In this document: piece by piece, positions 28,874 to 29,080 of the stretch
Layout of the letters: each line of letters begins with the position of its first letter
Position numbering within the stretch: position 1 is the first letter of the stretch
Assembly: GCF_963921235.1 (NCBI RefSeq)
Contig: NC_086097.1
Coordinates: forward strand, 26,786,001-26,850,000
Length of the DNA stretch: 64,000 nucleotides
Reading direction: 5' to 3'
Source of the DNA: Mobula hypostoma
Taxonomy: Eukaryota
Program-made: the position numbers and the translations under genes
The notes under the pieces: generated by a model
Told to the model about the DNA's origin: nothing
The model's input: the letters and a program-made list of their open reading frames with translations, nothing else
Database searches by the model: none

Positions 28874-29080
28874 CTCGATCGGTAGCTGCTGTTTGGTTTT
28901 CTCCAAACTAAAGCACTTAGCCTGGGCTGCCTCTGCATCCTCTTCAGCCTCCTGCAGTCGAGACGTCAGCTTCTTCTCTGATTCCTCCAACTCCCGCCCC
29001 AGTCTCAGCAGTTCTGACCCACGCTTCATGTCCATCTCCATCGGGGACGCAATTACACCACCAGCTTCTTCCAATCTGTT
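28874..29080 (-). pseudogene. Captured sarcomeric myosin heavy-chain rod fragment
   Basis: [69 protein letters not shown] resembles the MYH segments [30 protein letters not shown] and ELEEAKKKLAQRLQEAEE.VEAVNAKC.SLEKTK.RLQ.E. Confidence 0.8.

Follow-up and report, generated by a model that had tools for sequence, protein, structure and literature searches.

Long terminal repeat (LTR) retrotransposons are known to take up host transcripts and to return them to the genome as part of new insertions. For LTR-mediated retroposition, Tan et al. (2016, Genome Res 26:1663, PMC5131818) set out a template-switching model with a median of 6 bp of microsimilarity, and the earlier cases cited there include maize Bs1 and rice LTR elements (Elrouby and Bureau 2001, 2010; Wang et al. 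2006) as well as HERV-K/FAM8A1 (Jamain et al. 2001). Here we analyse a 64,000-nucleotide stretch of the genome of the ray Mobula hypostoma (hereafter the window), in which 69 stop-free codons on the minus strand (28874-29080) very probably represent the 3' end of an intron-free fragment from a host MYH16-like myosin gene. This fragment, the cargo, lies in the internal region of a ~4-kb non-autonomous LTR retrotransposon family of the Ty3/gypsy type; it was likely acquired from spliced mRNA by reverse transcriptase (RT) template switching and was then amplified with its carrier. Acutely transforming retroviruses also transduce host genes by template switching, in somatic events that are selected for cell growth. 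Unlike these, the ray event is germ-line, concerns an element of the Ty3/gypsy type and was amplified as a transposon family. The maize and rice elements that carry retrocopies are reportedly plant elements of low copy number, whereas the ray family resides in a cartilaginous fish, carries one myosin rod fragment that has gone through serial in-frame deletions, and has reached high copy number.

The likeness to the previously described chimeras is close in both structure and orientation. As in those of Tan et al. (PMC5131818), an intron-free piece of host mRNA replaces part of an internal open reading frame (ORF) between two LTRs; the cargo is in frame, as it often is there, and in sense orientation relative to the parental gene; and the ray chimera is a non-autonomous LTR element that was retroposed again (39 other scored loci, and independent target duplications in the clean-ended copies). 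It departs from these chimeras in forming a family of hundreds to more than 1000 copies, with several subfamilies and in at least four ray species, and whereas the microsimilarity reported there concerns the fusion points of element and mRNA, the ray microhomologies sit at later internal deletions. Among the earlier cases cited in PMC5131818, maize Bs1 and the rice elements are like the ray family in being defective LTR elements whose internal region holds transduced pieces of host genes that spread along with them, and HERV-K/FAM8A1 shares with it a retroelement that takes up host mRNA by template switching and fuses it to its own ORF, but FAM8A1 is reportedly a single untranscribed pseudogene. 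The proposed mechanism and the product match known LTR-mediated retroposition, while scale and persistence differ. No description of the ray element was found in a full-text literature search. The family provides a clean, base-resolved vertebrate case of host-mRNA transduction by an LTR retrotransposon, in which the donor, the splice joins and the deletion microhomologies are identified, and it is unusual in that the chimera became a high-copy family common to manta/devil rays and stingrays.

The open stretch of 69 codons is present as the earlier note on this DNA had claimed, and is enclosed by a 201-amino-acid (aa) stop-free frame at 28577-29182. When its translation is compared with all Protein Data Bank (PDB) chain sequences by phmmer, the top matches are all myosin heavy chains, with E-values of 1.8e-8 for an MYH7(1361-1425) chimera and 2.4e-7 for full MYH7 and MYH4, and two stretches of the query fall on one and the same MYH7 chain (residues 22-67 on 1377-1422 and residues 2-66 on 1149-1217). 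A teleost myosin-16-like protein is matched by residues 1-34 at 1139-1172 with 56% identity and by residues 30-66 at 1376-1412 with 68% identity, and the residue signatures ELLRL.RELEE and DLKMTI.SLNE are among those supporting an MYH16-like identity. By these alignments, the similarity to a sarcomeric myosin rod is far above chance. Pfam yielded nothing useful, with no Myosin_tail match for the 69 residues or for the 201-aa frame, and Myosin_tail_1 was not reached by the cargo or by the element ORFs scanned. It is important to note that a complete myosin gene is not what is found here, but only rod pieces, intron-free and inside a transposon ORF: set against the sarcomeric myosin genes of the MYH16 lineage, the cargo is homologous to the rod and is devoid of a motor domain, neck, complete rod and introns.

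At the DNA level, 28873-29098 is 86-100% identical on the minus strand to exons of one host myosin gene (blastn, E-values down to 1.8e-33). This donor is a MYH16-like paralogue at G000:C68:14.58-14.71 Mb, and not a MYH7-type gene, and its protein fits the element almost residue for residue; the outside proteins closest to the long variant of the cargo are teleost 'myosin-16-like' (E-value 1.3e-11), with fast skeletal myosins following at 6.6e-6 or weaker. Across the family, the window subfamily is 86-94% identical to the donor exons by blastn, copy c1b 88-90.5% and the c63/c5 subfamily 74-97%, and a further upstream donor exon (QNRLEDLQVGEDK..) is 83-86% identical to the element. Most telling for the origin of the cargo are the joins between exons. 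In the window the end of exon C at 29042 abuts the start of exon D at 29041 with nothing between them, where the donor has an intron of 2.7 kb, and exon E, present with only its final 5 nt (28981-28977), runs straight into exon F (28976-28873, 104 nt, 88.5% identity), where the donor has an intron of 24 kb; the same exon E/exon F junction is undamaged in copy c1b, which reads GAGGAGTCCAA/GAAGAAGCTGACG (here and below, a slash in a sequence marks a join). Because the exon ends are joined exactly and both donor introns are absent, the cargo derives from spliced mRNA. The homology to the donor ends mid-exon, after ..ATCGAG (window 28873; donor C68:14707448). Counted along the teleost myosin-16-like protein (P0017), rod residues ~995-1000, 1143-1172 and 1378-1415 have homologues in the cargo, and the cargo of the longer subfamilies covers ~900-1415.

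Other candidate donors were rejected. The non-muscle myosin loci retrieved in a PF01576 search give no blastn or tblastx match; the fast-type genes (C68:15.3-15.9 Mb, C2 and C40) reach 57-69% amino acid identity in the part encoded by exon F and ~30% when longer gapped alignments are taken; and the MYH16 orthologue on contig C36 has 58-75% nucleotide identity to the window fragment. An apparent retained intron in the element, seen as tblastn read-through 'QVR' at the end of donor exon B, proved a coincidence by base-level comparison. The donor paralogue itself has very long introns between the exons seen (3, 48, 2.7 and 24 kb; C68:14583577-14707500), and a tandem cluster of at least eight fast-type myosin genes lies ~0.6 Mb from it (C68:15.31-15.89 Mb). 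Long intron-free Myosin_tail matches with several in-frame stops at C18:48745523-48746731 and C50:30689110-30689772 look like processed pseudogenes outside the element family.

The nature of the carrier emerges from copies elsewhere in the genome. At other loci, homology extends more than 1.5 kb to both sides of a 236-nt fragment, which is in frame behind a retroelement protease (..AILDTGAQ..) and an RT that breaks off soon after its YVDD box. Four copies with 10-kb flanks are elements of ~3.6-4.0 kb, three of them with LTR pairs 84-90% identical and the fourth without a clear 5' LTR; among seven full copies examined, elements of 3.9-4.1 kb, six have LTR pairs (84-97% identical). The LTRs are ~660-720 bp long with TG..CA ends. 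Copy c36 (3985 bp), with LTRs of ~715 bp that start with TG and end with CA, has a primer-binding site, TGGGGGCTCATCCGGGAT, which lies 2 nt beyond the 5' LTR and shows complementarity to host tRNA genes at their 3' ends, and a polypurine tract, GGTGGGGGGGAGAG, before the 3' LTR, which starts at 3274; the myosin-like 236 nt occupy element positions 2547-2782. The cargo is thus internal in full copies, ~490 bp upstream of the 3' LTR, and does not lie inside the LTR as had been supposed. The accompanying observation, that a related LTR at 526-1138 of the window lacks the fragment, is accurate for the homologous part (784-1140) and yet uninformative: an LTR without the cargo says nothing, because the cargo is not LTR sequence. 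Three of four clean-ended copies have exact target-site duplications of 4 bp (TCTA in c55, ATTG in c63 and TAAG in c67), and c36 is flanked by CAAT/CATT.

The coding part supports the same assignment. RVT_1 is recognised with E-values of 1.6e-6 (in a 467-aa ORF) and 6.8e-10, and RVP weakly (0.015); the best solved relatives are the Ty3 RT (6.6e-14 and 3.3e-13), followed for the 467-aa ORF by MYH7 and MYH4 (8e-10 to 2e-7). No RNase H or integrase domain was found in the 467-, 666- and 832-aa ORFs scanned, the RT is incomplete, either truncated or with an internal deletion, and the length of the element is only ~4 kb. By its domain content, the family is a non-autonomous LTR retrotransposon of the Ty3/gypsy type. 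Capture may have proceeded by template switching within a virus-like particle, and amplification would have drawn on the proteins of an autonomous partner. Two points weigh against this account of the capture. The autonomous parent was not found, no systematic search having been made for it, so that template switching at the fusion points of element and mRNA is a proposed step; and none of the 150 kb fetched, including C68:14570000-14583500, yielded the donor exons that encode residues ~870-995, so that the 5' limit of the cargo rests on protein colinearity with the C36 orthologue (E-value 0.003).

The cargo has been shortened repeatedly since. The 69 residues comprise three donor segments, joined in frame at microhomologies of 11 nt (AGATTGGAAGA) and 6 nt (GAGGAG): two non-adjacent rod segments, as first described, do match one MYH7 chain, but the RLEEAGG at the head of the first of them is itself a deletion junction. 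The in-frame join at ELEE was correctly recognised and coincides with the 6-nt GAGGAG microhomology. At this join, between residues ~1172 and ~1378, element copies read GAGTTGGAGGAG/TCCA.. (the window's own copy has GAGGAA here), and the donor reads GAGTTGGAGGAG/GCC at the ~1172 site and GAGCTTGAGGAG/TCCAAG at the ~1378 site. The crossover removes ~205 codons, and because it lies mid-exon on one side and 5 nt short of an exon end on the other, exon skipping is ruled out; the ELEE junction does not coincide with a donor exon boundary. The leading NRLEEAGG of the window is a second, subfamily-specific junction, from ..CAGAACAGATTGGAAGA/TTTACAAG.. (QNRLED, ~1000) to ..GATAGATTGGAAGA/AGCTGGTGG (DRLEEAGG, ~1140), where the microhomology is the 11-nt AGATTGGAAGA at window 29067-29077.

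Other subfamilies have other in-frame deletions, and the longer ones carry ~500 residues' span of rod. Since these longer subfamilies contain several deletions, we count the ELEE join among a number of deletions inside what was once a longer capture, and the alignments do not place it at the capture itself. Of the transduction of host mRNA by template switching at microhomology put forward in the earlier note, the mRNA origin, evident from the exact exon joins, and the microhomology at the join therefore stand, whereas the join belongs among the later deletions. These may have arisen by template switching or by slippage at the microhomologies, and as a series of in-frame deletions they form a natural record of such junctions. 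The 1172/1378 join is common to Mobula, Hypanus and Hemitrygon sequences, and because all three have it, it predates their separation unless the element spread horizontally. Two readings of single motifs were discarded: the match of ETMTNLRKDQQKL to the ESIMDLENDKQQL region of MYH7, as the collinear match is to residues ~974-1002, and 'KLRSF' as an RT thumb motif, which myosin KVR(S/T)L explains better.

The extent of the amplification can be gauged from searches of the animal's own genome (3.48 Gb), in which 'first-look candidates' denote counts before scoring and, for the DNA queries, 40 were scored. The 236 nt around the fragment give 797 first-look candidates, and all 40 of those scored matched, namely the window and, over at least 228/236 nt and at 93-96% identity, 39 other loci; a 41st match in the list, of 35 nt, comes from the right arm of the window itself. 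A myosin-16 rod query gives 1928 first-look candidates, and most of the listed matches have open frames of 200-836 aa. Four matches with long ORFs, picked from the top of a list of 150, were fetched, and all four are LTR elements of 3.9-4.1 kb with ORFs of 666-836 aa and LTR identities of 89.7-97.1% where a pair is present. A protein search with the 374-aa ORF of one copy found 15 relatives, 14 of them from four ray species (Mobula hypostoma, M. birostris, Hypanus sabinus and Hemitrygon akajei) and the remaining one a distant teleost RT-RNase H. Several of the ray relatives have a longer myosin part, collinear with myosin-16-like ~960-1172 and then with the 1376-1412 segment, with gaps between, and the Mobula relative P0014 matches myosin-16-like 1365-1415. 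Four ray proteins (P0006, P0007, P0010 and P0014) are named by their source 'myosin heavy chain, skeletal/striated muscle-like' or 'MYH16'; these labels are annotation artefacts, the proteins being transposon ORFs and not myosin genes, and the gene-prediction labels 'myosin heavy chain-like' and 'MYH16' on such ORFs in ray genomes should be treated as transposon artefacts.

In the window itself, the element is represented by a rearranged copy in which two arms face each other (Table 1). The left arm at 28438-29098 corresponds to the internal region of c36 from 3221 to 2544 in reverse, and the right arm to internal 2725-3219 (29644-30116) and to LTR 455-718 (30115-30377) in forward orientation. 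The arms are 90.3% identical over 752 nt, with recurrences at 28912-28951/29096-29135 (40 nt, 90%) and 28698-28917/29644-29863 (95%), and the cargo is found in both, in agreement with its reported recurrence in the forward arm and its presence in the element before the fold-back. A private deletion, from internal 3221 to LTR 455 at a GTTG microhomology, is likewise in both arms and is absent from 29/29 other loci. The cargo of the right arm is in two pieces because it was split by an insertion that resembles a miniature inverted-repeat transposable element (MITE); the latter gives 4638 first-look candidates in the own genome, all 40 scored matched, including 39 other loci at 89-91% identity and nearly full length, and its target duplication is TA or TAA.

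Table 1. Features of the rearranged element copy at 28110-30377 and of a related LTR fragment (window positions)
Feature	Position	Strand	Remarks
TGTA, putative left target-site copy	28106-28109		right copy TATA at 30378-30381; 3/4 bases agree
LTR 5' end copy, 23 nt (TGTAAGGGGTTTC...), inverted relative to left arm	28110-28132	+	left terminus; 21/23 identical to c36 3' LTR start
tRNA 3' half, 39 nt (nt 38-76, CCA included)	28137-28175	+	95% identical to host tRNA gene 3' halves
Left arm, 3' LTR part (c36 LTR 718 to 455)	28178-28441	-	blastn 90.5-92.4%
Left arm, internal 3' region downstream of cargo (element 2783-3221)	28438-28872	-	joined to LTR 455 at GTTG
Cargo, donor exon F (..KQQLPIE), 104 nt	28873-28976	-	88.5% identical to C68:14707345-14707448
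Cargo, last 5 nt of donor exon E (TCCAA in donor, TCAGA here)	28977-28981	-	exon F follows without the intron
Cargo, start of donor exon D	28983-29041	-	ends in GAGGAG microhomology
Cargo, end of donor exon C	29042-29077	-	exon D follows at an exact splice join
Cargo, start of donor exon ~995-1025 (QNRLED) and upstream cargo to palindrome centre	29067-29098	-	19/19 nt at 29067-29085
Right arm, cargo (element 2691-2725)	29096-29130	+	GAG at 29097-29099 common to both arms at fold-back
MITE-like insertion, ~518 bp	29127-29645		terminal inverted repeats 29127-29167/29605-29645 (41 nt)
Right arm, rest of cargo	29644-29688	+	c36 mapping
Right arm, internal 3' region to ~30116, then LTR 455-718	29689-30377	+	ends ..GGGGGCTACA
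Related LTR fragment of another subfamily, outside the unit	784-1140	+	77% identical to LTR 361-689; without myosin sequence

At the left end of the unit, the inverted 23-nt LTR start ends exactly at LTR base 1 and is separated by TTAC from a 39-nt copy of a tRNA 3' half, which is in turn separated by AA from the LTR end of the left arm. This tRNA copy bears the CA of the CCA end, in which the host tRNA genes do not follow it, and extends beyond the usual 18-nt primer-binding site. We take it to be tRNA-Pro, although ARAGORN names the host genes Leu, Gln or Arg, and its start at nucleotide 38 presumably lies just past a modified G37. Rfam on 27900-30600 (E-values up to 1) and ARAGORN on the window reported nothing, and the partial tRNA is seen only by comparison with host tRNA genes. 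Those with a 16-nt insert after the anticodon loop are 89-90 nt long (L121 1449-1537, L122 1448-1537, L123 1501-1590 and L126 1501-1589); ARAGORN calls them Leu(tag), Gln(ttg) and Arg(tcg), and they look to us like intron-bearing tRNA-Pro genes (AGG, TGG, CGG). The same tRNA 3' half, from nucleotide 38 to CCA, occurs outside tRNA genes at three other loci (L117 ~1500-1546; L118 ~1500-1545, minus strand; L119 ~1500-1540, minus strand), at one of which it is joined directly to the ..VEEAGG cargo of the family and to an inverted LTR end; one of the three adjoins what we assume to be the 5' end of a large-subunit (28S) rRNA. Together, these loci suggest recurrent read-through into the primer tRNA and recurrent chimeric complementary DNAs (cDNAs).

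We consider it probable, though far from settled, that the whole unit at 28110-30377 is a single aberrant snap-back cDNA, made with a misplaced strand transfer, a fold-back within the cargo and copying that ran on into the tRNA primer, and then integrated in one piece, with the MITE inserting after the palindrome had been integrated. The chief competitor is an origin after integration, in which an ordinary truncated copy already in the chromosome was duplicated in inverted orientation or repaired by fold-back; we regard this as a real if somewhat doubtful possibility. Inverted duplications with a short central microhomology, here GAG, are a common product of replication and repair errors, and the arm divergence of 9.7% shows only that the event is old; moreover, two observations count against a palindrome formed before integration, in that the flanking 4-mers, TGTA and TATA, differ and agree at only three of four bases, and in that no worked-out path yields the 23-nt inverted LTR start. 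Against chromosomal repair stands above all the left end, where 39 nt of a mature tRNA primer with its CCA are joined to the LTR end and followed by 23 nt that stop at LTR base 1: the tRNA copy and the exact LTR start are hallmarks of cDNA synthesis. The three further loci have the same tRNA piece with the same starting nucleotide, one of them joined to cargo of this very family; both ends of the unit have LTR-type termini; and the divergence of the arms equals that between the LTRs of ordinary copies (84-97% identity). Read as a snap-back cDNA in which 39 nt of the tRNA primer were retained, the window copy resembles a fossil of failed reverse transcription, which is the rarer detail of the locus, and this arrangement is the sole feature specific to the window.

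What the cargo does, if anything, is a separate matter. The window copy is a dead derivative, with a cargo that likely has no function at this locus. In 29 copies of its subfamily, per-site diversity at codon positions 1/2/3 is 0.158/0.148/0.154 in the RT remnant, 0.068/0.085/0.086 in the cargo and 0.086/0.099/0.083 in the tail, the lower values in the cargo arising because the copies were picked as best cargo matches; with diversity equal at the three codon positions, the copies of this subfamily are, by this measure, decaying neutrally. An alternative, which we find unlikely, is that the coiled-coil is not a passenger and was kept in frame because a fusion of Gag-like part, protease, truncated RT and coiled-coil helps the element, for instance by multimerising or by entering a partner's particles, or because copies were co-opted by the host. 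A purely passive cargo is indeed called into question by several findings. Pairwise Nei-Gojobori ratios of nonsynonymous to synonymous substitution (dN/dS) between ORF-bearing copies across subfamilies are 0.44-0.91, with a median of ~0.53 in frame vs ~0.8 out of frame (15 non-independent pairs), the in-frame value lying below both out-of-frame controls in 12/15 pairs and below at least one in 14/15; ORFs of 716-836 aa survive in some copies, one of which has LTRs only 89.7% identical; all junctions seen (RT-cargo, three or four internal deletions, cargo-tail) keep one frame; and the ORF start of the long-ORF copies has a weak match to the Gag-type PNMA family (E-value 7.6e-4, below cut-off).

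Set against these findings are, besides the equal diversity of RT, myosin and tail at the three codon positions, the lengths of the open frames around the cargo in 29 other loci, which at 83-467 aa are as neutral decay predicts, and the fact that deletions between in-phase, GAG/GAA-rich microhomologies preserve the frame automatically. Furthermore, the long-ORF copies come from the top of the list of 150 and the dN/dS pairs are not independent of one another, and the truncated window copy cannot encode the fusion. The comparisons weakly suggest some coding constraint while the family was active, and give no evidence for a host function. That the stolen coiled-coil acted as an oligomerisation module, by which the fusion protein, together with its RNA, gained entry to an autonomous partner's particles, would be a long shot; if true, it would explain the expansion to a thousand or more copies across myliobatiform rays, unlike other LTR-mediated retrocopies.

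It is very improbable that the hairpin gives rise, through transcription, to small RNAs by which the donor myosin gene is regulated. Pairing between the arms could extend over ~0.7 kb, and the cargo shows 88.5% identity with the donor across 104 nt, including two 20-mers that match exactly, but the longest exact match to the donor mRNA pieces (exons C+D and E+F) is 20 nt, with no 21-mer; only ~80 nt of the paired region is cargo, and this is interrupted by the 518-bp MITE; the arms are now only 90% complementary; the unit is without the first ~454 nt of the LTR, which would comprise the promoter-bearing U3, except for 23 nt; and hundreds of other copies have the same cargo, so that the locus is not special. 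On the same figures, we see no grounds for the earlier suggestion that the palindrome serves as a source of myosin-homologous double-stranded RNA. That the similarity reflects nothing more than coiled-coil composition, or that a local myosin pseudogene has decayed here independently of the repeat, for either of which one could cite the missing Pfam Myosin_tail match and the tendency of coiled coils to cross-match, has next to no likelihood and is refuted at the level of the alignments by the 86-100% DNA identity to specific, collinear exons of one gene with exact splice joins, and by the recurrence of the same sequence at hundreds of LTR-bounded loci.

Two further repeats lie near the unit. 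Just to its left, an inverted repeat of 183 nt (26897-27079/27808-27990) is 76% complementary, with related pieces near 36414-36493 and 19091-19237, and at 31306-31575 a 90-nt unit is present in three tandem copies (100%, 100% and 89% identical).

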